64,000 nucleotides of DNA from contig JAHLMP010000001.1 of NCBI GenBank assembly GCA_018920315.1, positions 177,049 to 241,048 of the forward strand. Direction: 5' to 3'. Origin of the DNA: Candidatus Aenigmatarchaeota archaeon. Its GTDB lineage: Archaea; Aenigmatarchaeota; Aenigmatarchaeia; GW2011-AR5; JAHLMP01. Each line of letters opens with the position of its first letter. Positions within the stretch are counted from its first letter, which is position 1. A model generated the notes under the pieces. It was not told where the DNA came from. It made no database searches and saw only the letters and a program-made list of their open reading frames with translations. Below are positions 1,183-52,747 of this stretch, piece after piece. Made by a program: the position numbers and the translations under genes.

Positions 1183-1289
1183 GGGCCCGTCGTCTAGCTT
1201 GGTCTAGGATCCGAGCCTAATTGAGCTTAAAGGGAGCTCGAGACAGGAGTTCAAAATTTTATTAGGCTTTGAAAATCTCCTCGGGCCCA
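1183..1289 (+). tRNA. tRNA, Pro-like (NGG anticodon loop ending GGGA), with two introns: 12 nt in the anticodon loop and 20 nt in the T-loop
   Basis: Acceptor GGGCCCG/CGGGCCC plus A73. D-arm GTCT..GGAT. Anticodon stem CGAGC (1212-1216) pairs with GCTCG (1236-1240), but 19 nt lie between them. T-stem AGGAG/CTCCT is separated by 27 nt. Removing 1256-1275 restores TTCAAAT. No CCA is encoded and an oligo-T run follows. The isotype is uncertain (see findings). Confidence 0.8.
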
Positions 1290-1359
1290 TTTTATTAAAG
1301 AAATCTAAATAAAATATAAAACTACTTATAAATAATTGTGAAAACAAAAATAACTATTA

Positions 1360-1836
1360 ATGAGACACTCGATTAAAACAGGACTTAGTTTTGGTCTTAC
1401 TTCTGGAATTATAACAACACTTGGATTAATAATTGGGTTACATTCTGGTACCCATTCTAAATTAGTTATAATAGGAGGCATATTAACAATAGCTATTGCC
1501 GATGCACTCTCTGATGCTCTTGGAATACATATATCAGAAGAATCGGAAAATAAGCATACACAAAAAGAAATATGGGAAGCTACTATAGTAACGTTTCTTG
1601 CAAAATTTATTTTTGCATTAACATTTGCGATTCCTATACTAATATTTCCTTTATCTTTTGCTATTATAGCATGTATAGTTTGGGGATTTTCTTTAATAGG
1701 AATCTTCAGCTATAATATTTTAATAGAGCAGAATAAAAAATCATATAAGGTTATCATCGAACATTTGATTATTGCTCTGGTAGTAATTGTTTTATCACAT
1801 TACGTTGGAGATTTTATTGATTTTATATTTAGATGA
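1360..1836 (+). CDS. VIT1/CCC1-family (DUF125) membrane protein, putative iron/manganese transporter
   Basis: 158 aa polytopic protein. GLSFGLTSGIITTLGL and AIADALSDALGIHISEE resemble the VIT family signature. Confidence 0.55.
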   Translation: MRHSIKTGLSFGLTSGIITTLGLIIGLHSGTHSKLVIIGGILTIAIADALSDALGIHISEESENKHTQKEIWEATIVTFLAKFIFALTFAIPILIFPLSFAIIACIVWGFSLIGIFSYNILIEQNKKSYKVIIEHLIIALVVIVLSHYVGDFIDFIFR

Positions 1837-1941
1837 TTTTTGTGCGAGTTTTGTTTTTATTTATTTTTGTTACGAATTATGGATAAGAATTGAAAAAATA
1901 CAAAAAATAATTTAAAAATGCAAAATTTCAAAAAATAAAAT

Positions 1942-3573
1942 TTAGTATTCTGGAGCTTCTTCTCTGCCAAACTTTTCTGGTGTTTTTGAGCTTGCTTTAG
2001 ATGCTGCTATAACATCATCTATTCTTAGAATCATCTCTGTAGCTTCTGCTGCAGATTTTATTGCCTGTGTTTTTATTTTCAATGGTTCTATAACTCCAAG
2101 TTTCTTCATATCATCTATTTTAGTATGTATAACATCTACTCCCATGTATTTGTTTCCTTTTCCATGTTGCGAAATTAGCTCTACTACTACATCAATAGGA
2201 TCCATTCCTGCACTTTCTGCTAGTGTTTTTGGAATTATCTCTAAAGCTTCTGAAAACTTAGTAATTCCTAATTGTTCTCTGCCTCCAACTGATTGTGCAT
2301 ATTCTCTTAATCTTAATGCTAACTCTATTTCAATTGCTCCTCCACCTACTACATATTTTCCTAACTCTATTGCTGAGATAACGCCAAGCACTGCATCTTC
2401 CATTGCCCTCTTTGCTTCATCAACCACATGCTCAGTACCTCCTCTTATTAGTATAGTTACCGATTTAGGATTCTTGCAATTCTCTACAAAAATCATTGCT
2501 TCGCCAGCAATCTTTCTTTCCTCTACTAAGCCAGCGTAACCCAAATCGCTTTCGCTCACCTCGTCTAAGTTGCTTATAATTGTTGCTCCCGTTGCTTTAG
2601 CTAACTTGCTCATATCGCTTTCCTTTACTCTCCTTACAGCTAAAACTTTATTCTTCGCTAGATAATGTAATACTAGATCATCAATTCCTTTCTGACAGAA
2701 AACAACATTGCATCCTGTTCTAATAACCTTTTCAGCTATCTCTTTGAGCATCTTTGTTTCTTGTTGCAAGAATTCTTGCATCTTCTCTGGCGAGGTAATC
2801 TCTATCTTTGCTTCTGTTTCTGTTGATTTTATTTCTAAAGCACTCTCTACAAGTAATATCTTTGCTTTTTCAATTCTTTTTGGCATATTTGGATGAGCAG
2901 ATTCTTTATCTATTACTATACCTTTTATTAATCTTGTATCATCTAAACTGCCTCCCTGCTTCTTTTCTATCTTTATATCGTCCTTGTTTATCACTACTTT
3001 TTCTCCGATCTTCTCGGCAACAGAATTTACTGCTTCTACAGCAAGCTTTGCTAAGCTTTCTTTTGCTGATTCTCCGCTTTTTCCAGTCATTGCTGTCATT
3101 GCAATCTTTTCTAAAAGTTCTACATCGTTTATTGTTATTTTTTCTGCGGTTTTGTCTAATATCTCAAGTGATTTTGCTGCTGCCATTCTAAATCCTTTTG
3201 CAATTGTTATAGGATGTAAATTTTGTTCAAGAAGCTCTTCTGCCTTTTTTAATAGCTCTCCCGCAATAACTACTGCAGTAGTTGTTCCATCGCCGACCTC
3301 TTCTTCCTGTGTTTTTGCTATTTCTACCATCATTTTTGCTGCTGGATGCTCTATCTCCATCTCATCCAATATCGTTGCACCATCGTTTGTTATTATTACA
3401 TCTCCTATGCTAGAGATTAACATTTTGTCCATTCCCCTTGGTCCCAATGTAGTTCTTACCGCATCAGCTATTGCTTTTGCTGCCTCTATGTTTTTTCTTT
3501 GTGCATCCTTGCCAGTCTGTCTTATTGTACCTTCTGGCAATACTAATATCGGTTGGACTAAACCTCCATTCAT
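1942..3573 (-). CDS. ths: Thermosome subunit (group II chaperonin)
   Basis: 543 aa. Contains [36 protein letters not shown] and VVGGGAIE, the canonical thermosome/CCT motifs. Confidence 0.95.
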
Positions 3574-3674
3574 GTAAGACCACCTATTAAAGGTTGGAAG
3601 GAAGATATTTTAAATCTATAGAAATATAAATTTATAGAAAGATTTAAAAAATTAATCGAATTGTTTCGATAAGA

Positions 3675-3992
3675 GTGGATTACATGCTTTATCTTGAAAT
3701 AATAAGATATCTTCTGATTATATTCTCCTCGGTCACACTAGGAAATTACATAATACTTAGAAAAACTGAAATAAAAAAAATTATCTCATCTACGATAATT
3801 CTATTTTTCTATTCTATATATCTATATTACTTTTTGTATTACTTTTTTCCTTTCGTTCCTTGGATTATAAAAGATGCTTTATTTTGGATTTTAATTTCAA
3901 TAATATTTAACAGAGGCGAAGGTGTGATACATAGTATTCTAACAGGAATTTCCAGCTTTTTTATTTTCTTTGTTCTTCATTTTCTAATTTAA
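3675..3992 (+). CDS. Hypothetical small membrane protein
   Basis: 105 aa and very hydrophobic (about 3 TM). No recognisable motif. An alternative ATG lies at 3684. Confidence 0.35.
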   Translation: MDYMLYLEIIRYLLIIFSSVTLGNYIILRKTEIKKIISSTIILFFYSIYLYYFLYYFFPFVPWIIKDALFWILISIIFNRGEGVIHSILTGISSFFIFFVLHFLI

Positions 3993-4064
3993 TAATTACA
4001 GTAATTTGATTGAAATAATGATAAGCTCGTAATATTTATATGGTTTTATGATAATCTTATTATT

Positions 4065-4340
4065 ATGGCAGCGCCTTATAAAAGAATTTACAAACATACT
4101 GGCCCAAGAGGAAAGGAAAAATATATAAGTTGTGGATTTTGCAAAAAGCTTGTTCCAAGATACAAAACAATCGCAATATATAAATCTTTTGGAATTTCAG
4201 ATCCTTATTTAAAAAAAGAAATGGAAATAAAGACAATACCGCTAAAAAGAAAGGTTTATGTTTGTATGCAATGTGCAAGACATAGGGGCATAGTAAAGAT
4301 AGGAAAAAGTAGAAAAAGTAGACCGCTAAGGGAAGAGTAA
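4065..4340 (+). CDS. rps26e: 30S ribosomal protein eS26
   Basis: 91 aa. PRGKEKYISCGFCKKLVPRYKTIA and YVCMQCARHRGIVK align with the two Cys pairs and basic blocks of eukaryotic/archaeal S26e. Confidence 0.7.
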   Translation: MAAPYKRIYKHTGPRGKEKYISCGFCKKLVPRYKTIAIYKSFGISDPYLKKEMEIKTIPLKRKVYVCMQCARHRGIVKIGKSRKSRPLREE

Positions 4341-4362
4341 TTTTAGCAAATATTTTTTAATT

Positions 4363-6048
4363 ATGATTTTTATGTTAGGAAAATTAAAAAGAATCTTTTC
4401 AAAAGAGAAAAAAATAAAAAGTGAAGAAAAAATAGCAAGAGAAACAAGAGCTTCCCTTTTACTAAAGTCTTTGAGACCAGAAGAAGAAAGAGTTGAAAAA
4501 ACTAAGAAATCTGAATCATCTTATGAATTTCCAAAATTTAAAATATTTACAGAAAAAAAACCGATAATCACTTCAATACAACCACCAATAAGATATTCGC
4601 TAATCTACCCTTATGCGTTTGCTTTGATAAGAAAGGATCCGATCTCAGGAAATTTACTGTATCATGTAATAGAACCATCATTATATGAAAATGAAGAAGA
4701 GATATTAGAAAAGATAAAGAGAGGGTTGAATCAGATAATAGACATTTCTCCGAGAGTAATAAAGAATAGAGAAAAGATGATAGAATTTTTAGAAGAAAAG
4801 GTTCAAAATCTTTTATCCCAATATGGGATAAAAATATCTAAAAGAGAATATTTGAAAATAATGTATTACATATATAGAGATTTTGTAGGACTAAATGAAA
4901 TAGAGCCGCTAATGAATGATCCTTTTATTGAAGATATTAGCGTAGATGGCATAAATCTTCCTGTATACGTTGTCCATCAAAAGCTTGGCTCGATAAAAAC
5001 TAATATAATATATAATGATATTGAAAAGTTAAGAGAATTTGTAGTAAAACTTGCTGAGAGATGCGATCGTTACATAAGTTATGCAGAACCCTTACTTGAT
5101 GGGAGCTTGCCAGATGGATCTAGAGTACAAGCTACACTTACTGGTGATGTTACAACAAGGGGACCAACATTCTCAATAAGAAAATTCAAAGAAGAGCCAC
5201 TCTCACCAATAGATTTAATTATGCTTAATACAGCATCTACAGAGCTAATGGCTTATTTATGGTATTTAATAGAAGCTAAAAGAAATATAATGATCTGTGG
5301 TGGCACTTCTACAGGAAAAACATCTTTGCTTAATGCGATATCTGTTTTTATACCTTATGAAGCTAAGATTGTTTCAATTGAAGATACTCGTGAACTAATG
5401 CTTCCTCATGAGCATTGGGTCCCTGGTGTAGCTCGCCCTGCTTTTGGTGCATCTGGAATAGGAGAAATTACAATGTTTGATCTTCTTAGAGAGAGTTTTA
5501 GACAAAATCCAGATTATCTTGTTGTTGGAGAAATAAGAGGTAAAGAAGCTTACGTAATGTTTCAAGGAATGGCCTCTGGGCATCCTTCTTTTGCTACTAT
5601 GCATGCTGCAAGCTTAGAAGATATGATAAAGAGATTGGAATCTCCTCCCATAGAGCTTTCGCCTTACTTAATAGAAATATTAGATATTGTTATCATAATG
5701 ATACATGCAAAAGAAAAAGGAAAAAGTGCAAGAAGAATAAAAGAAGTTTTGGAAATTCAGAATATAGATAAAGCAACAGGAAATGCAAACGCGATTAGAG
5801 CGTTTACATGGATTCCTGCAGAAGATAGAATAGAGTTTAAAGGTTATTCTTGGGTGTTGAATAAGATATCGATAGACAAAGGTATATCAATGAGAGAAAT
5901 TTACAGAGACATAGAACAAAGAAAAATGGTATTGGACTGGCTTGTGAAAAATAATATAAGATCTATTTCTAAAGTTGCAAAATATGTTGAAATGTTTTAT
6001 AAAGAAAGAGAGAGGTTGATGAAGATTATAAAAGAAGTCGAAGAATAA
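4363..6048 (+). CDS. FlaI/PilB-type secretion ATPase (GspE / type II-IV secretion NTPase family)
   Basis: 561 aa. Walker A is GGTSTGKTSLLNA and Walker B region is DYLVVGEIRG. SIEDTREL and the His box (GHPSFATMHA) are typical of archaeal archaellum/pilus assembly ATPases. Confidence 0.85.
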   Translation: MIFMLGKLKRIFSKEKKIKSEEKIARETRASLLLKSLRPEEERVEKTKKSESSYEFPKFKIFTEKKPIITSIQPPIRYSLIYPYAFALIRKDPISGNLLYHVIEPSLYENEEEILEKIKRGLNQIIDISPRVIKNREKMIEFLEEKVQNLLSQYGIKISKREYLKIMYYIYRDFVGLNEIEPLMNDPFIEDISVDGINLPVYVVHQKLGSIKTNIIYNDIEKLREFVVKLAERCDRYISYAEPLLDGSLPDGSRVQATLTGDVTTRGPTFSIRKFKEEPLSPIDLIMLNTASTELMAYLWYLIEAKRNIMICGGTSTGKTSLLNAISVFIPYEAKIVSIEDTRELMLPHEHWVPGVARPAFGASGIGEITMFDLLRESFRQNPDYLVVGEIRGKEAYVMFQGMASGHPSFATMHAASLEDMIKRLESPPIELSPYLIEILDIVIIMIHAKEKGKSARRIKEVLEIQNIDKATGNANAIRAFTWIPAEDRIEFKGYSWVLNKISIDKGISMREIYRDIEQRKMVLDWLVKNNIRSISKVAKYVEMFYKERERLMKIIKEVEE

Positions 6049-6181
6049 AAATTCTAAATTGATTATTAAGTGAATTATAAGATGATTTCGGTTTGTTATA
6101 TATTTGGTGTATTCCCTTTTGAGTGATGTAAAAAAGCTAAGAAAAAATAATTAAATATTAAAAGATAAAAATAACCTTTGT

Positions 6182-8941
6182 ATGATTGTTCAAGTTCTTG
6201 ATTGCGATTATATACAAAACCACAAACCAATAATAAGAATATTCGGAAAAACTGAGAATGGAAATCCAATATGCTTATTTTATGAAGGTTTCTTACCTTA
6301 TTTTTATGTATCTGGTAATGAAGAAAAGATAAAAGAATTTTTAGATGAAAATGAAAATGTCATAAAAATAGAGAAAGAGAAAAAGTTTGAATCTATCGGC
6401 TATCATAAAGAGCCGATCGATGTTCTTAAGATTACTTTATCCTCGCCTAGTGAGGTTAGCAAGCTAAGAGACTTGCTAGAGCAACAACCTTTTGTAAAAA
6501 AGGTTTACGAGGCTGACATACTTTTTAAATATAGATTTATGGTAGACTTTGGAATAATGGGGATGAGATGGATAGAAGTAGAAGCTAATAGTTTGCACAC
6601 AACTACGGTGAAAGTTCCTTCATTTCAAATAGTTGGTAATAAAATAAAGTTAATTGAAAAGGATGAAAATTGTAAACTTAAGTATCTTTCGATTGATATA
6701 GAAGCTCTCCCAAAAGATTATTCTAAACCACTTGAACCTAAGGATTGTCCGATAATAATGATTTCTCTTGCATTTAATCCACCGATGAAAGGAAAAGATT
6801 CTCTTGTTTTGTTAACAAAAAATGTAAATGCTGATAATAAAATAAACATCATAAATTTTGAAAATGAAGAAGAGATGCTAAAAAAGTTCTTGGAAATAAT
6901 AGATGAATACGACCCAGATATAATAGTTGGTTATAATATAAATAATTTTGATCTTCCTTTCATTATAGAAAGATTAAAAATTAATAAACTTCCACAAAAT
7001 ATAGGGAGATGCTCACTAAAGCCTGCAATAATAAGAAAGTTTGGTGGGAGCGAAGAGTGTGACATTCCTGGAAGAATTGTATTCGATCCTTATCAAATAA
7101 TAAGAAGAGATCCTTGGATGAGATTTAAGAGATATGATTTAAATACAGTTGCAAAAGAGCTTCTCGGAGAAGAAAAAATTGAAATAAAATATAAAGAGAT
7201 GGAAAAGTATTGGAATGGAGATGAAGAAAAATTGAAAAAATTCATTCTTTATTCTAAAAAAGATTCAGAGTTGGCTTTAAAATTGGTTATAGAAAAGGGT
7301 CTTATAGAAAAATTCTTTGAGCTTTCTAAGATTTCTGGATTATTACTTCAAGATACTTTTGGAGGCCAAGCCATAAGAGTTGAGATAAGATTGCTCCATG
7401 AATTCAAGAAAAGAAATCTTTTAATGCCCTGCAAGCCCTCGAAAGAAGAAATTAATAGAAGAACTTTGGAAAGAGAAAAATATGGATTAATAGGAGCTAC
7501 AGTACTAGAACCTAAAAGGGGTTTGTACAAAAATAAATGTATTCTTGTTCTCGATTTTACATCTCTTTATCCTAGCATAATCCAAACATATAACATTTCT
7601 CCTGATACAATTATATTGGATGAGAAGGAAACTCCAAAAAAGATTATAGAAACTCCAATGAAAGCGAAGTTTGTCGATGCTTCTATATATCAAGGAGTTA
7701 TGCCATCAATCTTAGAAGAATTAATGAAAAAAAGAAAGGAAATAAAAAAAGAATTAAAAAATGCTAAAGGTGAAAGAAAGAAGATTCTTGACTACATGCA
7801 ACTTGCTATAAAAACTATGGCAAATAGCTTTTATGGCTATACTGGTTTTCTAATGGCAAGATTATATATGCTTGACATTGCTAATGCCATTACAGCAATT
7901 GGAAGAGAAAATTTAGCAAAAACGAAAAAGATAATTGAGAGCAACTTTCCATACAAAGTTATTTATGCAGATACAGATTCGGTGTTTTTAGAAACGGGTA
8001 TTACTAACTTAGAAGAAGCGAAAAAAGCTGGAGAAGAAGTTTCTAAGTTTGTTACAGAAAACTTGCCCGGTTGCTTAGAATTGAAATTTGAAAAGATATA
8101 TAAGAGTTTTATAATCCTTACAAAAAAGAGATATGCTGGTTGGGCATTCGAGCCTAGCGATAGCGAATGGAAAGATTATATTGATATGAAAGGAATAGAA
8201 ACTGTTCGTCGTGATTGGTGCGAGCTCGTTGAAGAAGTTACAGGAAAGGTTATTGAACTTGTTCTTAAGAAAGATGATATAAACGAGGTAGTAAATTATG
8301 TCAAAACTATAATTCAAAAATTGAGAAAGAATGAAATACCTTTAGAAAAATTAGCGATTGTTAAAGGATTAACTAAACTTCCTTCCTCTTATAAAGGTAT
8401 TTTGCCTCATATAGAGGTAGCGAAAAAAATGATAGAAAGACATCCAGAAAATCCTCCGAGAATAGGAGATAGAATAAGTTTCGTTATAGTTGCTGGTAGT
8501 GGAATGGTATCAAAAAGAGCAGAAAGCTTGGATTATGCAAAAGAGCACAAGCTTGCAATTGATTCTAATTATTATATTATGAGTCAAATACTGCCACCAA
8601 TAGAAAGAATATTAAAGGTAATTGGAGTTTCAAAAGATGAGTTGATTCAAAGCGCAACCCAAAGTACGATAAAAGATTTGCTATTTTCAAAATTTGAAAA
8701 AAATAATGATAAAATGAATTATATAGAAAAAAATTGTGAAAATGAAAGGAAAGATAACGAAAATGCAAAAATCTTATTTAATGAGAATTCAAAAATAAAT
8801 ATTTTAGAAGGATGGGAAAACTTTATATGCGAAAAATGTAACAAAATTTATAAGGTTATGCCTCTTAATGGGCTTTGCAAATGTGGAGGAAAATTAGTTA
8901 TAAAATATAATGAGTATGTCTCTAAATATTGTAAGCAGTAA
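6182..8941 (+). CDS. polB: Family B DNA polymerase with a C-terminal C4 zinc-ribbon extension
   Basis: 919 aa. Exo motifs are present (LSIDIEA, YNINNFDLPF). Pol motifs are DFTSLYPSII, KTMANSFYGY and YADTDSVF. The tail carries CEKC..x14..CKCGG (8828-8884). Confidence 0.95.
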   Translation: MIVQVLDCDYIQNHKPIIRIFGKTENGNPICLFYEGFLPYFYVSGNEEKIKEFLDENENVIKIEKEKKFESIGYHKEPIDVLKITLSSPSEVSKLRDLLEQQPFVKKVYEADILFKYRFMVDFGIMGMRWIEVEANSLHTTTVKVPSFQIVGNKIKLIEKDENCKLKYLSIDIEALPKDYSKPLEPKDCPIIMISLAFNPPMKGKDSLVLLTKNVNADNKINIINFENEEEMLKKFLEIIDEYDPDIIVGYNINNFDLPFIIERLKINKLPQNIGRCSLKPAIIRKFGGSEECDIPGRIVFDPYQIIRRDPWMRFKRYDLNTVAKELLGEEKIEIKYKEMEKYWNGDEEKLKKFILYSKKDSELALKLVIEKGLIEKFFELSKISGLLLQDTFGGQAIRVEIRLLHEFKKRNLLMPCKPSKEEINRRTLEREKYGLIGATVLEPKRGLYKNKCILVLDFTSLYPSIIQTYNISPDTIILDEKETPKKIIETPMKAKFVDASIYQGVMPSILEELMKKRKEIKKELKNAKGERKKILDYMQLAIKTMANSFYGYTGFLMARLYMLDIANAITAIGRENLAKTKKIIESNFPYKVIYADTDSVFLETGITNLEEAKKAGEEVSKFVTENLPGCLELKFEKIYKSFIILTKKRYAGWAFEPSDSEWKDYIDMKGIETVRRDWCELVEEVTGKVIELVLKKDDINEVVNYVKTIIQKLRKNEIPLEKLAIVKGLTKLPSSYKGILPHIEVAKKMIERHPENPPRIGDRISFVIVAGSGMVSKRAESLDYAKEHKLAIDSNYYIMSQILPPIERILKVIGVSKDELIQSATQSTIKDLLFSKFEKNNDKMNYIEKNCENERKDNENAKILFNENSKINILEGWENFICEKCNKIYKVMPLNGLCKCGGKLVIKYNEYVSKYCKQ

Positions 8942-10455: not shown

Positions 10456-10554
10456 GCCCCCGTAGCTCAGTTTGGATAGAGCACCAGCCTCCTAAGCTGG
10501 GGGTCGTGAGTTCGAACCTTTATAATAATTAAAGAGAAATTCTCACCGGGGGCA
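10456..10554 (+). tRNA. tRNA-Arg (anticodon CCU) with a 24-nt T-loop intron
   Basis: Acceptor GCCCCCG/CGGGGGC plus A73. D-arm GCTC..GAGC. Anticodon arm CCAGC-CTCCTAA-GCTGG. T-stem GTGAG/CTCAC. Removing 10517-10540 restores TTCGAAT. No CCA is encoded. Confidence 0.9.
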
Positions 10555-15324: not shown

Positions 15325-15450
15325 AGCCCCGTGGTGTAGCGGTCAAGCATATCGGCCTTTGGAGGTTGATCCAAAGATGTGAAAAAAGATGAGCTAACGA
15401 AGAAAGCCGAAGACCTCGGTTCGAATTTTTCGAGAATCCGAGCGGGGCTA
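15325..15450 (+). tRNA. tRNA-Gln (anticodon UUG) with a 42-nt canonical anticodon-loop intron and an 11-nt T-loop intron
   Basis: Acceptor AGCCCCG/CGGGGCT (A1-U72) plus A73. Anticodon stem TCGGC/GCCGA. The loop CTTTGG^...^A has its intron at 15363-15404, where CTTT pairs with GAAG and the flanking bulges are 3 nt. T-stem CTCGG/CCGAG. Removing 15426-15436 restores TTCGAAT. An oligo-T run follows. Confidence 0.9.
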
Positions 15451-16141: not shown

Positions 16142-16690
16142 ATGGAAGATAAAGAAAAAAACGAAATTGTGGTTTTAAGACTTTCTCATAGAAAGAATAG
16201 AGATAAGAGGGTAACTACACATGTAGCTTTAGTTGCCAGAGCCTTCTCTGCTAAAAAATGCTTTTATGCTGGAGATAAAGATGAGGAACTTGAGAAAAGA
16301 ATAAAAAAGGTTGTTGAAAAGTGGGGTGGATATTTTCGAATAGAATATTCAAAAAATTGGAAAGCTTTATTAAAAGAGTTGAAAAATGAAGACTATTTTA
16401 TAGTTCATTTAACAATGTATGGAATTCCTATACAAAATTTGATAGAAAAAATAAAAAATAAAGAAAAAATTGTCGTAATAGTTGGTAGTGAAAAAGTTCC
16501 TAGAGAAGTTTATGATTTGGCAGATTGTAACTTAGCTATAACGAATCAACCACATAGTGAGATTGCAGCTCTTGCAATATTTTTAGATAGAATTTTTGAT
16601 AGCACAGAGCTTTATAAAGAATTCGAGAATGCTAAAATAAGAATAATTCCAAGCAAGCGTGGTAAAAAAGTGTGGCAAAAAAGTGATTGA
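16142..16690 (+). CDS. trm56: tRNA (cytidine56-2'-O)-methyltransferase aTrm56 (SPOUT)
   Basis: 182 aa. [62 protein letters not shown] closely match the archaeal Trm56 family. Confidence 0.9.
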
Positions 16691-28793: not shown

Positions 28794-29747
28794 ATGAAGA
28801 TTGTAAAAAAAGCTTACCTTGCTTCATTTCCTATTGGGCATATTGCTCTCGATGAAAGTGGTTCGCTAATTCTATTCAAAGATTTTAGAATAGATAAAAA
28901 TGAAGTTCTCGAAGAATTGAAAAAAATGGGATATGAAATTATAGAAAATGATTTCTCTAAAAGCATTGGAAGAAAAAAGATTAGAAGAATTGCAATTATG
29001 AGTGGTGCAGTAAAGGATGATAAAGAGTTCAATAAAATTTTAATTGAATTTGGCATAAAATTTAGCGAAAGTAGAATGAAGATAGAAAGAGAAAAGGTAA
29101 TAATAAGAGCTTACGATATTTTAAAAACAATTGAAAAATTTTATCAACCTTTAAAAGAAAGATTTAAAGAGCTTTGTTGGCTTTATAGCCCTACCACAAA
29201 ATTAAGTGATGAAAAATTAGAAAATATTTTGAATAAAATTAAAAACTCTAAATTTGAAGAAGAATTTGGAATAAAAATTCTAGATAAAGATAAGAAGATA
29301 TTAAAAGAATTGGGAGATTTCGTTTATTTATCTAAAAACATAAAAAATGAAATCGAAGAATATACAAAAGAGGAGATAAAACAAATTGCTCCAAATTTAT
29401 CTTATATTGCTGGCGAAGACATTGCGTTAATGCTTCTTTCCTATGCAGGTTCTCTAAAAAATCTTGCGAAGATGAGTGCTTCGACAATTCAATTATTGGG
29501 TAGTGAGAAGGCTTTATTTAGGCATTTGAAAAATAGAGAAAGGGTTAAACCACCAAAACACGGCTTAATTTATAATTCTCCATATATAAAAAATTCTCCT
29601 AAAGAATATCGTGGAAAGATTGCTAGAATTTTAGCATCTAAAATAGCTCTTGCTGTAAAAATAGATTTTTATTCTCAAAGAGATGAAAGAGAGAGATTAA
29701 AAAAAGAGTTGGAAGAAGAAATTTCAAAAGTGATGAAAAATGAATAA
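28794..29747 (+). CDS. nop5: Nop5 (Nop56/58) box C/D RNP core protein
   Basis: 317 aa with the Nop domain LAKMSASTIQLLGSEKALFRHL..PPKHGLIY. It overlaps the fibrillarin start. Confidence 0.9.
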   Translation: MKIVKKAYLASFPIGHIALDESGSLILFKDFRIDKNEVLEELKKMGYEIIENDFSKSIGRKKIRRIAIMSGAVKDDKEFNKILIEFGIKFSESRMKIEREKVIIRAYDILKTIEKFYQPLKERFKELCWLYSPTTKLSDEKLENILNKIKNSKFEEEFGIKILDKDKKILKELGDFVYLSKNIKNEIEEYTKEEIKQIAPNLSYIAGEDIALMLLSYAGSLKNLAKMSASTIQLLGSEKALFRHLKNRERVKPPKHGLIYNSPYIKNSPKEYRGKIARILASKIALAVKIDFYSQRDERERLKKELEEEISKVMKNE

Positions 29748-30420
29748 AGAGGAAATTACGATAAAAAGTAGAAATGAAAAAGAAAGTTTGATTGAGTTAT
29801 TTGATAATGTATTTTTTGATAATGAAGAGAAGAAAATTTATACCAAATATACTACAAAAAGCTCAGAAGAATTGCGAGAATGGGATCCATATAGAAGCAA
29901 AATAGCAGCAGCAATATTAAATGGATTAAAAAATTTTCCATTTAAGAGAGGTTGTAAAATTTTGTATTTGGGTGTTTCTACAGGGACGACATGTTCGCAC
30001 ATAAGCGATATAATAAGTAGTGATGGAATAATCTATGGCGTAGACTTTGCTGAACGTGTGTTTTACTTATTTTTAGATTTAGCTAAGAAGAGAAATAACA
30101 TTGTCCCTATATTTGCAGATGCAAGATTGCCTAATAATTATTTCTGGGTTGAAGAGGTTGACATTGTTTATTGCGATATAGCACAACCAGACGAAATAGA
30201 TATTGCGATAAGAAATGCAGAGATATTTCTTAAGAAAGATGGACATCTAATCATAGCGATAAAATCTAGAAGTATAGATGTTACGAAAGAGCCGGAAATT
30301 ATATATAAAAATGAGATAAATAAACTTGAAGAAAATGGCTATAAAATATTAGAATTGATAAATTTAGAACCCTATGAAGATTCTCATGCTTTAGTTGTTT
30401 GTATTAAAAATAAGGAGTAA
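29740..30420 (+). CDS. flpA: Fibrillarin (rRNA/tRNA 2'-O-methyltransferase)
   Basis: 226 aa with REWDPYRSKIAAAI, ILYLGVSTGTTCSH and VYCDIAQPD. Confidence 0.95.
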   Translation: MNKEEITIKSRNEKESLIELFDNVFFDNEEKKIYTKYTTKSSEELREWDPYRSKIAAAILNGLKNFPFKRGCKILYLGVSTGTTCSHISDIISSDGIIYGVDFAERVFYLFLDLAKKRNNIVPIFADARLPNNYFWVEEVDIVYCDIAQPDEIDIAIRNAEIFLKKDGHLIIAIKSRSIDVTKEPEIIYKNEINKLEENGYKILELINLEPYEDSHALVVCIKNKE

Positions 30421-35493: not shown

Positions 35494-35577
35494 TAGCCCC
35501 GCTCGGATTCTCGAAAAATTCGAACCGAGGTCAGCTGGTCCAGAGCCAGCTATGCTTGACCGCTACACCACGGGGCT
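35494..35577 (-). tRNA. tRNA-Gln (anticodon CUG) with an 11-nt T-loop intron
   Basis: The reverse complement reads AGCCCCGTGGTGTAGCGGTCAAGCATA-GCTGG-CTCTGGA-CCAGC-TGAC-CTCGG-TTCGAA[tttttcgagaa]T-CCGAG-CGGGGCT-A. The intron occupies 35508-35518. Confidence 0.9.
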
Positions 35578-43741: not shown

Positions 43742-43882
43742 GCGGGGGTAGCCAAGTGGTCAAAGGCGCAGGGTTGAGGTAAATTTGCAGAAGCCCTGTC
43801 CCTTAGTGGGTTCGTGAGTTCGAATTTTGCTCAAAATATCGTGAAAATAAGTAAAAAAGCGACGAAAATCTCACCCCCCGCA
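43742..43882 (+). tRNA. tRNA-Leu (anticodon GAG) with a 13-nt anticodon-loop intron and a 44-nt T-loop intron
   Basis: Acceptor GCGGGGG/CCCCCGC plus A73. Anticodon stem CAGGG/CCCTG with loop TTGAGG^[43780-43792]^G. A long variable arm (TCCCTTAGTGGGT) is present. T-stem GTGAG/CTCAC. Removing 43825-43868 restores TTCGAAT. Confidence 0.9.
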
Positions 43883-44996: not shown

Positions 44997-45157
44997 ACTA
45001 GTTAATTTACATTTAAATATTTAATAGCTAATAGTTACATAATTTTTGGATTCACTAAGAAATAAAATTAGAAAACATTTTATTTAATTTATTGGTGATT
45101 TCACTTACAAATTTTAAAATGATATAAAATGAATATTGTGATAATGGTGTTTGATTA

Positions 45158-46327: not shown

Positions 46328-46398
46328 AATTAAAATTTAGTAAAATTTTCCGAAACTAGATTTCTATAATTTAAAAATACTTGAGAATAATTAATTTT

Positions 46399-46968
46399 AT
46401 GCAGCTCCCGCCAATAGAGGATTTGGTTTGGGCTTTTTTTAAAGTGCCTCAATATGTAAGAACAGGAGTTTTTCTTAACGATCTTATAAACTTTATAATA
46501 CTACCAAGTGCTGTACTTATAATCTTCCTTATTTCAGCAGCCCACGTATTTATTCCTGGAATTCTAAGAGAAAGGTGGAAAACTTTTATAGCATTAGTTT
46601 TTTATATGGTAATTGTTTCCCAAGGTATTTATGCTTATTTCGCAATTTTCTTTCAAGGATATGTGATGATATTTATCATCTTTGCTTTTATATTCTTCGC
46701 GATCACAAGATTTATTCCTATGAAGTATTGGGAGGCTGGAGCAAAAGTTGCAGCTAAATACGGAGAAAAGAGCCAAGACATAAAGAGATTGCAACAAGAG
46801 CTAGAAATAAAAATGAGAGAAAGGGAAAGAGTTCAGGGTTATCTTAACCAAGCCATAGCTGATGGGAGAAGAAGAGATGTTCAGATGTGGCAAATCCAAT
46901 TAAATGAAATAGAAAGGGAAATAGATAGACTAAAAATAAGAATTGAAGAATTGAAGAAGATGCCATAA
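46399..46968 (+). CDS. Hypothetical polytopic membrane protein with a C-terminal coiled coil
   Basis: 3-4 TM helices followed by KRLQQELEIKMRERERV...LNEIEREIDRLKIRIEELKK. The ORF track starts at 46381 on TTG. Confidence 0.4.
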   Translation: MQLPPIEDLVWAFFKVPQYVRTGVFLNDLINFIILPSAVLIIFLISAAHVFIPGILRERWKTFIALVFYMVIVSQGIYAYFAIFFQGYVMIFIIFAFIFFAITRFIPMKYWEAGAKVAAKYGEKSQDIKRLQQELEIKMRERERVQGYLNQAIADGRRRDVQMWQIQLNEIEREIDRLKIRIEELKKMP

Positions 46969-47091
46969 TATTTTTTCAATTTAATTAAAACTATATGAAG
47001 TATTAGCTTTAACTTATTAAATTTTTCTATTATCAAACATATATTTTTAACTACCGAAAAGTAAATAAATATATAAAGATATATTAAAAAT

Positions 47092-47592
47092 ATGCCTAAC
47101 GGACAAAAAGGTGTAATATTGGATATTGGAGCTCTGCTAACTCAGTATTTACAACAGCGAGCAACGAATATTGAAGAGCTCCAAAAGGTTTCAACAGATC
47201 CTACGAAGATAGTAGATTATATTTTCTATGGTACTTTAGAAAAAGATCCGACAACAAACCAAATTAGACGCCGTGGTGGATTGCTTAATATTAGTGACGA
47301 TCCATCTGGAAATCCTTTAAGTGGAAATGATATTTTTAGTCCAATAGATCCATCTACAATGACAATGAGTGTGCCTATTGGCTACTTGATTGGAGTTGCG
47401 AATGAAAGAATGACAGAAGCAGATTACTATGGAGCTGCAATAGAAATTGGTGCTATCAAAGATTTGTCTCGACCACTATCAGATTTCATTTACGCTTTCG
47501 CTCTTACGAATATGTTGAGCGAGGAGCAACAAACGCCAAGGCCTACAGAAAGAAGAGACGATCGCTTTTCATTTTCTTATCCTTATTTTTAA
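47092..47592 (+). CDS. Hypothetical soluble protein with atypical composition
   Basis: 166 aa, rich in G, P, T, Q and D and poor in K compared with its neighbours. I recognise no motif. Confidence 0.4.
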   Translation: MPNGQKGVILDIGALLTQYLQQRATNIEELQKVSTDPTKIVDYIFYGTLEKDPTTNQIRRRGGLLNISDDPSGNPLSGNDIFSPIDPSTMTMSVPIGYLIGVANERMTEADYYGAAIEIGAIKDLSRPLSDFIYAFALTNMLSEEQQTPRPTERRDDRFSFSYPYF

Positions 47593-47672
47593 TTTTTAAA
47601 TAAAAGCTTAAGCAATGAAAAAAGGTTTTAAAGCTTGCTAAAAAAACTAAAGAAAAATAATTAGCCAAAATG

Positions 47673-48695
47673 CTAAATTGGAGTTGCTAAACTTTCGTCG
47701 TCCTTATAAATTTTTTCATTTATTATCATATCCTTTTTTATTAATGGTTTCGGTTTCTTTACTGCTTCAACCCTAAAGAAGCTTGAGTTATACCAATCGA
47801 AATCTGACTTAATTTTTATTTTTTCAAATAAAGGAAACTTTTCTTCAAATCTGAACATATTACCTTTAATATCTGGATAGACGTTAAATTGCCTCTTTAT
47901 ATCCGTAATTACAAATCCCATATCATAAAGCATCTTCTCAATATAATACCATTTAGTTCGAGAAGCTTCTAGAGGAGTTATTCCGAAATAACCACTACTA
48001 CCTATGCCGCGAAGAGCAGAAACTAAACGAGAAAAAAATAGTTTTAATCCTAACAAGGTTTCAACTGGGTCTGTAATAAAAACATCAAAGCTTTTTTCAA
48101 ATTCTCTAGGAATTTTTCTTTGTGCATCATAGATATGGGCTTCTAAATTTAATTTATATTTTTTTGCAATGCTATTTATAAAATTTACAATTCTTTCATC
48201 TATCTCCAAAACAACTACTCGCTTAGGTAGTCTTGTAAGCGAACAAGCAATGCTAATTAAATCATCATCTCCTAAAACTATAATATCTCGATATATGTCC
48301 CCACGTTCATGAATAAATTCAACTCTTCTAACTATTCCTTCTGGATCGATAAATCCTTGATCATATTTTTCTATTGCTTCTGGGCGATTTTTGCAAATCC
48401 TTTCAAATCTTTCCAATATTTTTTTATAGAAATTCGAAACTATATATCCAGTAGACTCACAAGACTTGCATCTTGCGTTTATTTTTTTAATTTTCAAATT
48501 ATTTATAATATTTTTGTCTACTAATTTTATCTTTCCATCATGAGAAATTTTTATTATTCCTTTATTTTCCATTTCTTCAATGATTTCTAAAAACTCCTTG
48601 ATTGAAGCATCTTGATGATAAAGTAAATAGTAAAAACTCTTCTCGCCACTAATCAATTGCTGAATTATTTGATTCGCTATTCTCTCTCTTTCCAT
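47673..48695 (-). CDS. bpsA: DUF43-family aminopropyltransferase, BpsA-like (branched-chain polyamine synthase)
   Basis: 340 aa with VLGDDDLISIA, VVLEIDERIV and FDVFITDP motifs. It lies immediately downstream of speH. Confidence 0.6.
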   Translation of the reverse strand: MERERIANQIIQQLISGEKSFYYLLYHQDASIKEFLEIIEEMENKGIIKISHDGKIKLVDKNIINNLKIKKINARCKSCESTGYIVSNFYKKILERFERICKNRPEAIEKYDQGFIDPEGIVRRVEFIHERGDIYRDIIVLGDDDLISIACSLTRLPKRVVVLEIDERIVNFINSIAKKYKLNLEAHIYDAQRKIPREFEKSFDVFITDPVETLLGLKLFFSRLVSALRGIGSSGYFGITPLEASRTKWYYIEKMLYDMGFVITDIKRQFNVYPDIKGNMFRFEEKFPLFEKIKIKSDFDWYNSSFFRVEAVKKPKPLIKKDMIINEKIYKDDESLATPI

Positions 48696-48700
48696 TTCTA

Positions 48701-49072
48701 TTAACCTCTATCTATTTCTATTTTCTTGTAATATTTTGGTTTAAACCTTCTCAAAAAGAATTCAAAGGCCTTCTCGACCTTTTTCTTTTCTCCGCAACTA
48801 AAAATATCGAGATTAACTAAGTTGTATTCGGGCCAAGTATGTATAGAGATATGACTTTCAGAAATAAGAACTATTCCCGTGACCCCCCATGGCTTGAATT
48901 GTTTGTAGTAACTCTTTATCTTTTTCATTCCTGCAAATCTCACAGCACTTTCCATCACTTCCATTACTTTTTCTTTCTTCGCTATTAGTTCTTGTTTTGC
49001 TCCATAAAGATCCGCTACTATATGTTTTCCAACATTCACTCTTCCTTTTTCTTCTAAATTCTTCTCTACCAT
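48701..49072 (-). CDS. speH: S-adenosylmethionine decarboxylase proenzyme (SpeH type)
   Basis: 123 aa. HIVADLYG and the self-cleavage context ISESHISIHTWPE are present. A GGAGGA lies 9 nt upstream of the ATG. Confidence 0.85.
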   Translation of the reverse strand: MVEKNLEEKGRVNVGKHIVADLYGAKQELIAKKEKVMEVMESAVRFAGMKKIKSYYKQFKPWGVTGIVLISESHISIHTWPEYNLVNLDIFSCGEKKKVEKAFEFFLRRFKPKYYKKIEIDRG

Positions 49073-49223
49073 GGGAATCGTCCTCCATAAATTTCACCCC
49101 GAATAATAAAGATTATCGCTCTACTTACATTTAAATTTTTTAGAAATTTTTATACTAAATAGTATTTTTCTAATAAGCAACGAAATCTCAAGAATTAAAT
49201 TATTTTGTTTTTATTATGAATTT

Positions 49224-50891
49224 ATGTTAAATCTAAGTGAAGATATTTTAAGAAAAATAGAGCTTTATACCTTGGAAAATGCTGTAACTCACAATGGAAA
49301 AGCTGTTAGTAAGCCCGTCTTGAATAAAATTCTTGCCGACCACAAAGAATTGTTAGAAAATATAAAAGAGTTAAATGAAATAGTAGAAAGAAAAGTAGAA
49401 GAAATAAATAAAATGAAGCTTGAAGATCAAAAAATAAAATTAGAGCTTTTGGGGTGGCAAAAGAAAAATATTGAAGAAAAGGAAAAGTCTTTAAAAGATA
49501 TTGCAAAACCAGGAGAAAGATTTGTTGTTAGATTTGCACCAAATCCTGACGGGGCTCTTACCATAGGTAATGCCAGACCAGCGATCTTATGTGATGAATA
49601 TGCAAAGAGATATAATGGAACTTTTATTCTAAGATTTGATGATACTGACCCTAAAATTAAAGTTCCGGAAAAAAGATTTTATCGTTGGGTAATAGAAGAT
49701 TTGAAATGGCTTGGGATAAAAATAGATAAAATAGTTTACCAATCAAAGAGGTTGAAAATATATTATGAGTATGCAGAGGAGCTTATAAAAATGGGTAAAG
49801 CTTACGTGTGCACTTGCGATGTTGAAGAATGGAGAAAATTAAGAAATGAAGGAAAACCCTGCAAATGTAGAGAGCTTTCTCCTGAAGAAAATTTGATAAG
49901 ATGGAAAAAAATGTTTAATGAATATAAAGAGCATGAAGCGGTGCTAAGAATTAAAACAAGTTTAGTGCATGAGAATTTCGCAGTTCGCGATTTTCCTGCT
50001 TTTAGAATAGTTGAAGATTGCAAGCATCCATTAGTTAAAGCTAGAGTTTGGCCTTTATATAATTTCGCCTCAGCAATAGATGATTATCTTCTTAATATTA
50101 CACATATTTTAAGAGGGCAAGAACATTCAACCAATGCAACAAAACAAGAATTTATATATAAATATTTTGGTTGGGAATATCCAAAAGTTTTTATATTAGG
50201 AAGGATTTCTTTAAGTGATATGGTTTTAAGCAAAAGTAAAATTAGAGCAGGAATAAATAATAAAATCTTTTCTGATTGGAATGACCCAAAACTTGGAACA
50301 ATAAGAGCACTAAGACGTCGCGGTTTTTCACCAGTAGCGCTAAGAAAGATAATTCTAGATATAGGAATAAAGCCTAATGATGTTGTGATAAGTAAAGAAA
50401 ATTTAGAAGCTTATAATAGGAAAATCGTTGACGAGCTTGCCAATCGTTATTTCTTTGTTAAGGAGCCAATAAAAATAAAAATAGAAGGACTGCCATTTAA
50501 AAGCAAGAAAATAAGTTTGCATCCTACAATAGATAGAGGCTATAGAGAATTGAATTTTGACAAATATTTTCTTATTGAGCGTGAAGATTTTGAAAGATTC
50601 AGAAGAAATGTTGTAAGATTAAAGGACTTGTGTGACGTTGTCTTAGATAAAAATTGTAAATTAGTTAATATAGAGTATACTAAAGAAAAAGACATTCCAA
50701 AAATACAATGGGTTCCTTTTGAGTTCAAAATAAGAACAAAAGTAATAATGCCAGATAAAACTCTCCTAGGATATGGAGAGTCGAATCTGAAAAATTTGAA
50801 AGAAGGTGAAATAATTCGATTGGAAAGATTTGGATTTTGCAGAGTTGAAAAAGTAAGAAAGAGTGTAACACTTGTTTTCACACATAAATAA
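49224..50891 (+). CDS. gltX: Glutamyl-tRNA synthetase (archaeal type)
   Basis: 555 aa. FAPNPDGALTIGNARPA is the HIGH-region equivalent and VLSKS is the KMSKS equivalent. The C-terminal beta-barrel anticodon-binding part is present. Confidence 0.9.
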   Translation: MLNLSEDILRKIELYTLENAVTHNGKAVSKPVLNKILADHKELLENIKELNEIVERKVEEINKMKLEDQKIKLELLGWQKKNIEEKEKSLKDIAKPGERFVVRFAPNPDGALTIGNARPAILCDEYAKRYNGTFILRFDDTDPKIKVPEKRFYRWVIEDLKWLGIKIDKIVYQSKRLKIYYEYAEELIKMGKAYVCTCDVEEWRKLRNEGKPCKCRELSPEENLIRWKKMFNEYKEHEAVLRIKTSLVHENFAVRDFPAFRIVEDCKHPLVKARVWPLYNFASAIDDYLLNITHILRGQEHSTNATKQEFIYKYFGWEYPKVFILGRISLSDMVLSKSKIRAGINNKIFSDWNDPKLGTIRALRRRGFSPVALRKIILDIGIKPNDVVISKENLEAYNRKIVDELANRYFFVKEPIKIKIEGLPFKSKKISLHPTIDRGYRELNFDKYFLIEREDFERFRRNVVRLKDLCDVVLDKNCKLVNIEYTKEKDIPKIQWVPFEFKIRTKVIMPDKTLLGYGESNLKNLKEGEIIRLERFGFCRVEKVRKSVTLVFTHK

Positions 50892-50909
50892 GCTTAGAAA
50901 ATGAAAAAC

Positions 50910-51206
50910 TTAAATTATCTCTGTAGTTTCTTTTTCTCCCTTTTCAGCTTCGAACAAGGATGGCGATATAGACTTTATTATGACTATTTCTCCTATGCTC
51001 TGCACCATTTGAAATGGAATCACTACTCCTTTCTTTGAACCAACTATATCTGCAAGAAAAGACCCCTTCACAACATCTACTATTATAGCTCTCACTTTGA
51101 ACTTCTCCAAATCAAGCTCTAAATTCGAGATTTTACCGCAATACGAACCTTTGTCAGTAAATACATCCTTTCCTATTAAATTAGAAAATTCTTCTATTGT
51201 TGCCAT
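50910..51206 (-). CDS. PRC-barrel domain protein
   Basis: 98 aa. LIGKDVFTDKGSYCGKISNLELDLEKFKVRAIIV fits the PRC barrel pattern. Confidence 0.6.
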   Translation of the reverse strand: MATIEEFSNLIGKDVFTDKGSYCGKISNLELDLEKFKVRAIIVDVVKGSFLADIVGSKKGVVIPFQMVQSIGEIVIIKSISPSLFEAEKGEKETTEII

Positions 51207-51311
51207 TTATTTCACCAAATTTAATATTAATTATAAATTTGCAAAAATATTTAAATACCTTTTGTTTTTAGTTTTTTTGTATTTATTATCTCACTACTAA
51301 TTATTGAAAAT

Positions 51312-52571
51312 TTAAAGAAAATCTCTTATATTCTTTTCGCCTCTTTTTATCTTTCTTTCTATGACTTTATCTTCAAGCAGCAATTCTCCATAAACCCCAT
51401 CATAACCAGGCTTTATATTTAATTTTCCTTCTCTATTTTTTATTATCAAATCAACAAGATTTTCATCCACTTCTTTAAGCTCTTCTTCATTAGCATTAAG
51501 TAGCGTAGCCAATTCGCTTCCAAATCTCGATATAAATTTTTCTTCTATTTCAAAAACCTTTTTAGAAAATAGATTAAGTTTATATTTTTTTGCTATTAGC
51601 TCTGTTAATGGTAGTATCTTTATGAAAGGTATTGCATTTTTTGGAACAAATCCACGAGGCCTGTCTGCAAGTTCTTCTACACGATGTAAAACACCAATAG
51701 TCAATGGTTTTTTGCATACCGGGCAAATATTATTTAATTTTAAACTTTCTTCTGGATCTAAAATTACATTACAATTTCTATGACCATCATAATGATACTT
51801 TCCATACGAAGGGTCTACCTCAATAGTAAAAAGAAATTTTTTAGAGTCTTTATTTTTTATTATCTTGATCAACTCATCATAACTAATCTCTTTCATCTCA
51901 AAAACGTTGCACTCTCTACCTATTCTCGAACTCCAAGGCGAATGAGAATCTGAATTTGATAGTAATGTAAATTTATCCAAAGAGCTTAATCTCCAATTCA
52001 TCTCAGGATCGCTTGAAAGTCCAGTTTCTATTGCATGTATATTTTTTTCTTGGTCCTGAAAACATTCTTTTATAGAGTCAAATCCAGACTTTGAACCGAA
52101 AATTCCGAACCAAGGAGTCCATGCATGAGCTGGAAATATAAAATTATCTTCAGAGATTTCTACAATCTTCTCTACAAATTCTGGACAACTCATCTCTATC
52201 GTAGGTCTTCCATCGGATTTTAGGTTAGTTTTATTCTCCAAAAATTCATTAATTTTCTTTACATCATCAAAACTTTTAGAAAGAATAACTAAATGTACCT
52301 TTCTTAATTTCTTTTCTTGTAAATAAACTAAGGAAACCTCTCCAGAAAGAATAAAATACATACCTTTATAAGAATATACCCCGCAATTGCTTTCAACTTC
52401 TTCCAACTTTTCCTCTATTTCATTTAGCCATAAAGGATGAGTAAAATCGCCTGTGCCCAACAAGTCGAGTCCTTTTCTCTTTGCATAATAGCAAAGCTCT
52501 TCAATATTCATTTGCTTAGATGTTGCTCTTGAATAATGTGAATGAATATGCAAATCGGCGATTATTCGCAT
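51312..52571 (-). CDS. Endonuclease Q-like PHP-domain protein with zinc ribbon
   Basis: 419 aa with ADLHIHSHYSRATS, LSNSDSHSPW, DPSYGKYHYDGHRNC, CPVCKKPLTIGVLHRVEELADR and GYDGVYGEL. This matches the EndoQ (COG1379) architecture. Confidence 0.7.
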   Translation of the reverse strand: MRIIADLHIHSHYSRATSKQMNIEELCYYAKRKGLDLLGTGDFTHPLWLNEIEEKLEEVESNCGVYSYKGMYFILSGEVSLVYLQEKKLRKVHLVILSKSFDDVKKINEFLENKTNLKSDGRPTIEMSCPEFVEKIVEISEDNFIFPAHAWTPWFGIFGSKSGFDSIKECFQDQEKNIHAIETGLSSDPEMNWRLSSLDKFTLLSNSDSHSPWSSRIGRECNVFEMKEISYDELIKIIKNKDSKKFLFTIEVDPSYGKYHYDGHRNCNVILDPEESLKLNNICPVCKKPLTIGVLHRVEELADRPRGFVPKNAIPFIKILPLTELIAKKYKLNLFSKKVFEIEEKFISRFGSELATLLNANEEELKEVDENLVDLIIKNREGKLNIKPGYDGVYGELLLEDKVIERKIKRGEKNIRDFL

Positions 52572-52614
52572 AGTTTAAATTTAAATTTTACTAATTAAAA
52601 TGAATATTTTAGAT

Positions 52615-52747
52615 GGGTCTGTGGTCTAGTGGTTATGATTCCTTAAAGGAATAACAAACGTTGCCTTGACGTGGCAAAGATCGCCGGTTCGAAATTTTAA
52701 GTGAATAAATGAAAAAATTAATAAAAACGAAAATCCGGCCAGACCCA
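52615..52747 (+). tRNA. tRNA-Val (anticodon GAC) with a ~20-nt intron at the D-stem/anticodon-stem junction and a 40-nt T-loop intron
   Basis: Acceptor GGGTCTG/CAGACCC plus A73. D-arm GTCT-AGTGGTTA-TGA[~52639-52658]CG. Anticodon arm TTGCC-TTGACGT-GGCAA. T-stem GCCGG/CCGGC. Removing 52694-52733 restores TTCGAAT. Confidence 0.85.

Follow-up and report, generated by a model that had tools for sequence, protein, structure and literature searches.

A T-loop insert at position 59/60, resembling a splicing-endonuclease intron, in six tRNA genes of an Aenigmatarchaeota archaeon

Results

Six tRNA genes interrupted in the T-loop

We analysed the tRNA genes in a 64-kb stretch of DNA from a Candidatus Aenigmatarchaeota archaeon (contig JAHLMP010000001.1, positions 177,049 to 241,048 of the forward strand), called the window below and numbered from its first letter. 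Six tRNA genes are present, Pro-AGG, Arg-CCU, Gln-UUG, Gln-CUG, Leu-GAG and Val-GAC, and in each the T-loop is split by an insert of 11–44 nt that lies between nucleotides 59 and 60. The genes and their introns are listed here in window coordinates. Splice motifs are of the bulge-helix-bulge (BHB) family, with hBHBh' as the strict form and hBH or bulge-helix-loop (BHL) as relaxed forms; H, h and h' are helices of these motifs, and a caret marks the cut in a bulge.

1183..1289, + strand: tRNA-Pro(AGG) gene, 107 nt, mature 75 nt; ARAGORN after intron removal
1219..1230, + strand: tRNA-Pro 33/34 anticodon-loop intron, 12 nt; hBH of the relaxed type, with 1 nt of uncertainty in its register; BHB scan gives H of 4 bp, h of 3 bp and AA^A as 3' bulge
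1256..1275, + strand: tRNA-Pro 59/60 intron, 20 nt; TGAA:UUCA pairing, inner helix absent, BHL type
10456..10554, + strand: tRNA-Arg(CCU) gene, 99 nt; ARAGORN after deletion, T-arm scan, partial Rfam match
10517..10540, + strand: tRNA-Arg 59/60 intron, 24 nt; H of 3 bp with a G57.A mismatch, 5-bp inner helix, AU^U as 3' bulge
15325..15450, + strand: tRNA-Gln(UUG) gene, 126 nt, 57 nt from the ThrRS gene; anticodon miscalled by ARAGORN
15363..15404, + strand: tRNA-Gln(UUG) canonical 37/38 intron, 42 nt; H 4, h 5 (BHB scan), AGAUGA motif inside
15426..15436, + strand: tRNA-Gln(UUG) 59/60 mini-intron, 11 nt; CGAG:UUCG pairing, BHL type
35494..35577, - strand: tRNA-Gln(CUG) gene, 84 nt; ARAGORN after deletion, T-arm scan
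35508..35518, - strand: tRNA-Gln(CUG) 59/60 mini-intron, 11 nt; identical to that of tRNA-Gln(UUG)
43742..43882, + strand: tRNA-Leu(GAG) gene, 141 nt, mature 84 nt; ARAGORN after removal
43780..43792, + strand: tRNA-Leu(GAG) canonical 37/38 intron, 13 nt; H of 3 bp and h of 6 bp, with AA^G as 3' bulge
43825..43868, + strand: tRNA-Leu(GAG) 59/60 intron, 44 nt; CGAA:UUCG pairing
52615..52747, + strand: tRNA-Val(GAC) gene, 133 nt, mature 73 nt; ARAGORN after removal
52638..52657, + strand: tRNA-Val 23/24 D-arm intron, 20 nt; strict hBHBh' with H of 4 bp and both h and h' of 5 bp; bulge sequences UG^A and AA^A
52694..52733, + strand: tRNA-Val 59/60 intron, 40 nt; near-strict hBHBh', CGAA:UUCG, inner helix UUUUA/UAAAA

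In the unmodified window, ARAGORN reports one tRNA, which is mis-folded, and the Rfam tRNA model gives no match at its gathering score. With a permissive E-value the model yields a single partial match (28.2 bits), which breaks off within the T-loop of tRNA-Arg. Direct reading of the six loci finds acceptor stems, D-arms and T-stem halves all present. The T-stem halves are perfect complements spaced 18, 18, 27, 31, 47 and 51 nt apart, in agreement with the range given by an earlier reading of the letters alone (the original prediction). That reading had also placed the inserts at the six 59/60 intervals listed above. Deletion of exactly these intervals restores TTCAAAT or TTCGAAT loops, and ARAGORN then calls six full-length tRNAs. 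When all ten introns are excised in silico, ARAGORN run without its intron option calls Val-GAC (73 nt), Pro-AGG (75 nt) and Leu-GAG (84 nt); the calls after removal, together with a BHB scan, bear out the predicted total of ten introns in six genes. Precise removal restores the canonical cloverleaf, as it should for introns of the endonuclease type.

An independent scan, requiring a paired T-stem, a T-loop restorable by one deletion and a paired acceptor stem, recovers the same six genes and none besides. No seventh tRNA was found in the window by a GC-island scan, the T-arm and acceptor-stem finder or a relaxed scan for normal T-loops. As a positive control, the last of these recovers three tRNAs in the flanks, which are the adjoining 10 kb of the same contig to either side (locus L085 upstream, L083 downstream; 84 kb with the window). 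The predicted count of six out of six is correct for the window, but the two Gln genes have an identical T-arm and an identical 11-nt insert, so that the set contains five independent cases. Two ARAGORN calls with wrongly placed introns were corrected by hand: ‘Stop-UUA’ for tRNA-Gln(UUG), to Gln-UUG, and ‘Phe’ for one flanking tRNA, to Met-CAU. The program mis-folds Gln-CUG because TTCGAA is self-complementary.

A predicted splice motif at 59/60

For an intron that follows nucleotide 59, a BHB motif predicts that positions 54–57 pair with intron nucleotides n-5 to n-2, that the last two intron nucleotides and U60 form a 3-nt bulge, and that the T-stem resumes at position 61. Pairing of positions 54–57 with n-5 to n-2 was scored against a control consisting of all other 4-mers inside the same introns. 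The central helix has four pairs in five of the six window genes, and three pairs plus a G57.A mismatch in Arg. The original prediction had located the pairing 4-mers (TGAA, AGAA, CGAG, CGAA and CGAA) at the right positions, and only for Arg does its full helix fall short. Taking the T-loop introns of the window and of its relatives together, three to four pairs form at 54–57 in 16 of 17, whereas 2.9% of the control 4-mers reach four pairs and 19.6% reach at least three. Position 57 covaries with its partner: G57 is opposite C in 9 of 11 independent cases, and A57 is opposite U in 2 of 4 and never opposite C. The 3' splice site, AA^U (AU^U in Arg), adjoins the 5-bp T-stem in all six genes, and the minimum free energy structure from RNAfold contains the T-stem, the stacked helix and a 3-nt AAU 3' bulge in five of them. 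The two splice sites are 4 bp apart on opposite strands of the central helix, with the 3' site in a 3-nt bulge between this helix and the exon-exon helix.

The 5' side is less uniform. An inner helix closing the 5' bulge has 5 bp in Arg, 4–5 bp in Val and a marginal 2 bp in Leu, and is absent from Pro and both Gln genes. Two 3-nt bulges had been predicted for every gene; the 3' bulge is indeed present in all six, but a closed 5' bulge is confined to Arg, Val and, weakly, Leu. Similarly, a strict BHB throughout describes Val, which is near-strict, but not Pro and Gln, in which the 5' site is in a loop (BHL/hBH). Across the set, the motifs range from near-strict hBHBh' to relaxed hBH/BHL.

The geometry is the same as that of the canonical 37/38 anticodon-arm intron, as had been proposed: U54–R57 makes up one side of the central helix, and the outer helix is provided by the T-stem. 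Both arms consist of a 5-bp stem and a 7-nt loop; in each, nucleotides 1–4 of the loop enter the central helix and the intron comes directly after nucleotide six. They differ in that the canonical intron resides in the anticodon arm and uses a variable strand, whereas the inserts described here reside in the T-arm and use the invariant UUCR strand. The introns outside 59/60 (Pro, Gln-UUG, Leu-GAG and Val) obey the same BHB rule, mostly with the same AA^N 3' bulge. For the anticodon-loop intron of Pro, a mirror-image BHB topology was dropped, on inspection by eye, for the canonical topology at 33/34.

Many 59/60 introns end in CGAA-AA because TTCGAA is self-complementary. Sequence similarity among the 59/60 introns gives no significant signal of transposition (Leu versus Val, p = 0.07). 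The 11-nt mini-introns have one common build, namely a 4-nt helix strand followed by NN^N, a further 4 nt, the complementary 4-nt strand and AA^N. The T-loop introns of both Gln genes (15426–15436 and 35508–35518) have this build, and so does the D-loop intron of tRNA-Leu(UAA) in the upstream flank (L085:12084-12094), where it reads GGUC AA^A UCUU GACC AA^A. The 11-nt mini-intron seems to be a minimal bulge-helix-loop unit.

Conservation and distribution in relatives

Relatives were sampled as 80 ThrRS-centred loci from species representatives. The nearest is a Ca. Aenigmatarchaeota metagenome-assembled genome (MAG) from a hot spring (L003; ThrRS identity 91%), in which both orthologues examined carry the 59/60 intron. 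Between the window and L003, the exons of tRNA-Arg are 100% identical, whereas the intron and flanks are about 50–60% identical (intron about 55%). Within this intron the 3' AAAGAGA segment is kept and the remainder is roughly half identical, like the flanks. At the Gln-UUG locus the two are 97% identical overall, and the differences within the gene are confined to the 42-nt intron.

Orthologous tRNA-Gln and tRNA-Arg genes with an uninterrupted TTCGAAT loop are found in other DPANN genomes. The tRNA-Gln gene adjoining ThrRS has the intron in the window, L003, L024, L030 and L043, and is without it in L005, L007, L011, L015, L020, L026 and L052, of which L026 is the next-closest Aenigmatarchaeota locus. 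At the ThrRS-centred loci of other DPANN genomes, 11 of the 28 sampled tRNAs have a 59/60 insert and the remaining 17 have normal T-loops; the resulting DPANN figure of about 40% is rough, coming from small samples enriched for one tRNA. All 11 inserts follow TTCRAA and end in YGAR-NN before U60, with lengths of 11–114 nt. They occur in isotypes that include Gln, Arg, Pro, Glu, Ala and Tyr, and their hosts are Aenigmatarchaeota, Nanoarchaeota, Woesearchaeota and unclassified DPANN MAGs. Among Bathyarchaeia and other non-DPANN loci, none of seven tRNAs has the insert. Conserved exons, divergent inserts, and presence or absence among orthologues suggest that the inserts are introns. Their presence in some orthologues and absence in others mark 59/60 as a recurrent hot spot of intron gain and loss.

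One relative has an additional feature. At L024:9483-9888 (minus strand), from an uncultured DPANN archaeon, two tandem 70-nt copies are situated upstream of tRNA-Gln. Each copy opens with the 5' acceptor sequence of this tRNA-Gln (AGCCCCGTAGCCGTAGG...CTGACGGGCTA), the T-loop intron of which is 95 nt long.

Flanking tRNA genes and intron density

The flanks contain three further tRNA genes:

L085:12062-12203, upstream flank: tRNA-Leu(UAA), D-loop intron and 37/38 intron, 7-nt T-loop
L085:14410-14519, upstream flank: tRNA-Thr(UGU), 37/38 intron, 7-nt T-loop
L083:5036-5164, about 4 kb downstream: tRNA-Met(CAU), D-loop and 37/38 introns, 7-nt T-loop; the gene miscalled Phe by ARAGORN

On the contig, the Leu-UAA and Thr-UGU genes precede the window by 2–4.5 kb. 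Over the 84 kb, the 59/60 intron is thus carried by six of nine tRNA genes, which together have approximately 15 introns, or about 1.7 per gene. The published maximum is that of Pyrobaculum calidifontis, with 71 introns in 46 genes (1.54 per gene), and the mean for Thermoproteales is 0.84 (PMC8450103). The intron density of this stretch is therefore at about the level of the P. calidifontis record or above it.

The four long canonical 37/38 introns of the contig (Gln-UUG, Thr, Leu-UAA and Met) all contain an AGAUGA motif, which is absent from the 59/60 introns and from the introns of relatives. In Gln and Met the motif is preceded by [C/G]UGA plus 4 nt, for example CUGAAAAGAGAUGA, and is reminiscent of a K-loop of the D'/C' type or of a C/D-box element. 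Three pairwise alignments of the Gln, Thr and Met 37/38 introns score z 2.8–6.3 against shuffles. Genes for Nop5 and fibrillarin are located at 28794–30420 of the window.

Genomic setting

The window has 30% GC and is archaeal. The archaeal hallmark proteins that it encodes include a thermosome, a family B DNA polymerase, aEF-2, topoisomerase VI B, TBP, a ThrRS with an archaeal editing domain, Nop5, fibrillarin, aTrm56 and branched-chain polyamine synthase. The gene for the last of these (BpsA; 47673–48695) fits a thermophilic life and the hot-spring origin of the closest MAGs. The ThrRS is identical to a protein on the 197-kb NCBI MAG contig JAVZLL010000001.1 (GCA_044343345.1), of which positions 123,097–187,096 approximately correspond to the window. 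The same tRNA loci are present in independent assemblies, two NCBI MAGs and one Logan assembly.

Two of the genes have further peculiarities. The tRNA-Pro gene (1183–1289) has the anticodon AGG, that is, an A at the wobble position, which is rare in Archaea; a tRNA-Pro(AGG) with A34 has been reported for ARMAN-4 and ARMAN-5 (PMC3239211). The 3' end of tRNA-Val (52747) is 2 nt ahead of the ATG of an amino-acid permease open reading frame (52749–54002), with no terminator-like T-run between them.

Assessment of alternative explanations

We consider it highly probable that all six are functional tRNA genes, rich in introns, from a thermophilic member of the Aenigmatarchaeota (DPANN), each with an endonuclease-type intron at 59/60. 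Its direct basis is the anatomy of the genes, the positional complementarity at the splice site, the conservation of exons against the divergence of introns, and the presence or absence of the intron among orthologues. Several observations weigh against it. The folding energies of the T-arm precursors do not differ significantly from those of shuffled sequences (z -0.5 to -2.3), so the support is positional complementarity and not thermodynamic. The central helix of tRNA-Arg has just three pairs and is not predicted by RNAfold. In Pro and Gln, A58 and A59 can also pair, so that the 5' site is a helix end or a triloop and not a clean bulge. Finally, neither EndA nor RtcB is encoded in the 84 kb, as judged from Pfam on 30 window open reading frames and the gene tables of three flanking loci, and neither turned up in the other loci retrieved. 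A tblastn search with M. jannaschii EndA (sequence as in PDB 1a79) against 1.45 Mb of retrieved loci likewise gave no match.

The original prediction went further and took the 59/60 intron to be a fixed architecture of every tRNA gene in the organism. The complete set of six in the window and the two L003 orthologues are what such an architecture would produce. The prediction had itself named a lack of the pattern elsewhere in the genome as evidence to the contrary, and this is what the flanks show: Leu-UAA, Thr-UGU and Met-CAU, on the same contig and within 10 kb, have normal T-loops. The tRNA-Gln of L026 is without the intron as well. The strict form of the proposal is thereby refuted, and we regard a fixed architecture as scarcely tenable; 59/60 is a recurrent hot spot in DPANN archaea and not a fixed feature of every tRNA here. 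An insert common to all six window genes could also be retained, the tRNAs working with enlarged T-loops or extra hairpins. A T-loop of 18–51 nt would, however, abolish the conserved contact between T-loop and D-loop at the elbow, and orthologues and the three neighbouring genes have the standard loop. Moreover, the inserts are unrelated sequences of 11–114 nt that have in common just the 3'-terminal YGAR-NN needed for the splice site, and the intron sequence drifts like intergenic DNA. Retention is therefore most improbable.

That standard finders do not detect these loci would also be expected if they were decaying pseudogenes or insertion scars, with functional intron-less copies elsewhere. 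Decay is difficult to reconcile with exons that are perfectly conserved between species while the flanks have diverged, with stems that are all intact, and with six genes that have six distinct anticodons. In addition, the position of tRNA-Gln beside ThrRS is conserved across DPANN, and every insert is exactly in the splice-competent register; we give this explanation almost no weight. A further question is which machinery would remove the introns. The relaxed BHL motif of Pro and Gln, the imperfect helix of Arg and the lineage-specific loops of DPANN EndAs (PMC5829648) might indicate a route other than the BHB endonuclease, or an unusual EndA that recognizes the T-arm specifically. Nevertheless, the geometry is exactly that of an EndA substrate, the EndA of ARMAN-2 cuts an hBH intron at the same position in vitro (PMC3239211), and the introns are far too short to self-splice. 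We judge this alternative to be very unlikely.

Discussion

Based on the gene anatomy and the pairing at 59/60, we infer that the inserts are cleaved out and the exons ligated, and suggest the following course. In the precursor, the T-arm would be without its 7-nt loop; U54-U55-C56-R57 would instead pair with the YGAR that ends 2 nt before the intron 3' end. This 4-bp helix would stack on the T-stem, which serves as the outer helix. The 3' splice site would then fall in the 3-nt bulge A-A^U60. The 5' site, A58-A59^N1, would be on the opposite strand at a distance of four base pairs; Arg, Val and, weakly, Leu would have it in a 3-nt bulge, and Pro and Gln in a hairpin loop. Both sites would most likely be cut by EndA, and the exons would presumably be joined by the RtcB ligase with archease. 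Ligation would have to precede formation of the T-loop, of its contact at the elbow and of its modifications. Along these lines, the original prediction of an endonuclease of broad specificity, of a precursor with no elbow before splicing and of T-loop modification after splicing can reasonably be inferred. A gene for archease, the RtcB cofactor, is located about 9.5 kb upstream of the window (L085:20266-20519), and the gene for aTrm56, the T-loop Cm56 methyltransferase, is located at 16142–16690, about 700 nt from tRNA-Gln(UUG). The nearness of both is probably coincidental.

The 59/60 T-loop intron is already a known kind of archaeal tRNA intron, and the set described here is a new and unusually dense example. 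The precedents invoked originally, in ARMAN and in Thermoproteales, are documented (PMC3239211, PMC4090602), and 59/60 is among the listed positions of non-canonical tRNA introns (PMC4090602). In ARMAN-2 (Candidatus Micrarchaeum acidiphilum), pre-tRNA-Cys(GCA) has a relaxed hBH/BHL intron at 59/60 that is cleaved in vitro by the epsilon2 endonuclease (Fujishima et al. 2011, PMC3239211), and tRNA-Pro(GGG) has introns at 53/54 and 59/60 (PMC3239211). The intron position, the T-stem as outer helix and the DPANN host are the same as in our set, and the relaxed form is that of Gln and Pro. In contrast to the individual cases in ARMAN-2, six of nine neighbouring genes are interrupted here, and the phylum is Aenigmatarchaeota; for ARMAN-2 the epsilon2 endonuclease and in vitro cleavage are known, whereas the introns described here are known from gene sequences. 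The multi-intron tRNA genes of Thermoproteales (PMC8450103, PMC4090602) belong to Crenarchaeota with an (alpha-beta)2 EndA and have introns at scattered positions, whereas one non-canonical site dominates here. In Thermofilum pendens and Cyanidioschyzon merolae, circularly permuted tRNAs are joined at 59/60 (PMC3218864) and similarly have a T-loop processing junction defined by a BHB, but in these genes the 3' half is upstream of the 5' half, whereas the exons are collinear here. We found no description of tRNA introns in Aenigmatarchaeota, or of a predominance of 59/60 in DPANN, in the literature searched, the coverage of which was incomplete. An additional ‘L3’ loop in DPANN endonucleases has been associated with greater disruption of tRNA genes (PMC5829648).

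We raise, tentatively, the possibility that in several DPANN phyla 59/60 is the main site of tRNA introns, on a par with the canonical 37/38 or ahead of it, with forms down to the 11-nt BHL mini-intron. About 40% of the sampled tRNA genes of Aenigmatarchaeota, Nanoarchaeota/Woesearchaeota and unclassified DPANN, and six of nine here, would fit such a predominance. If true, it would point to T-arm-directed intron gain or to selection for interrupting the T-arm. Candidates for such selection would be the masking of integrase attachment sites in the tRNA 3' half, or a gating of T-loop modification or elbow formation. It would also account for many of the ‘missing’ tRNAs in DPANN annotations. Every tRNA gene of the 64-kb window escapes both ARAGORN and the Rfam tRNA model. 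The tRNA counts by which MAG quality is gauged, and lost or split tRNAs in DPANN archaea are inferred, can thus be badly underestimated. The lineage is a good system in which to study the gain of non-canonical tRNA introns, the reasons for which 59/60 is favoured and the substrate range of DPANN splicing endonucleases.

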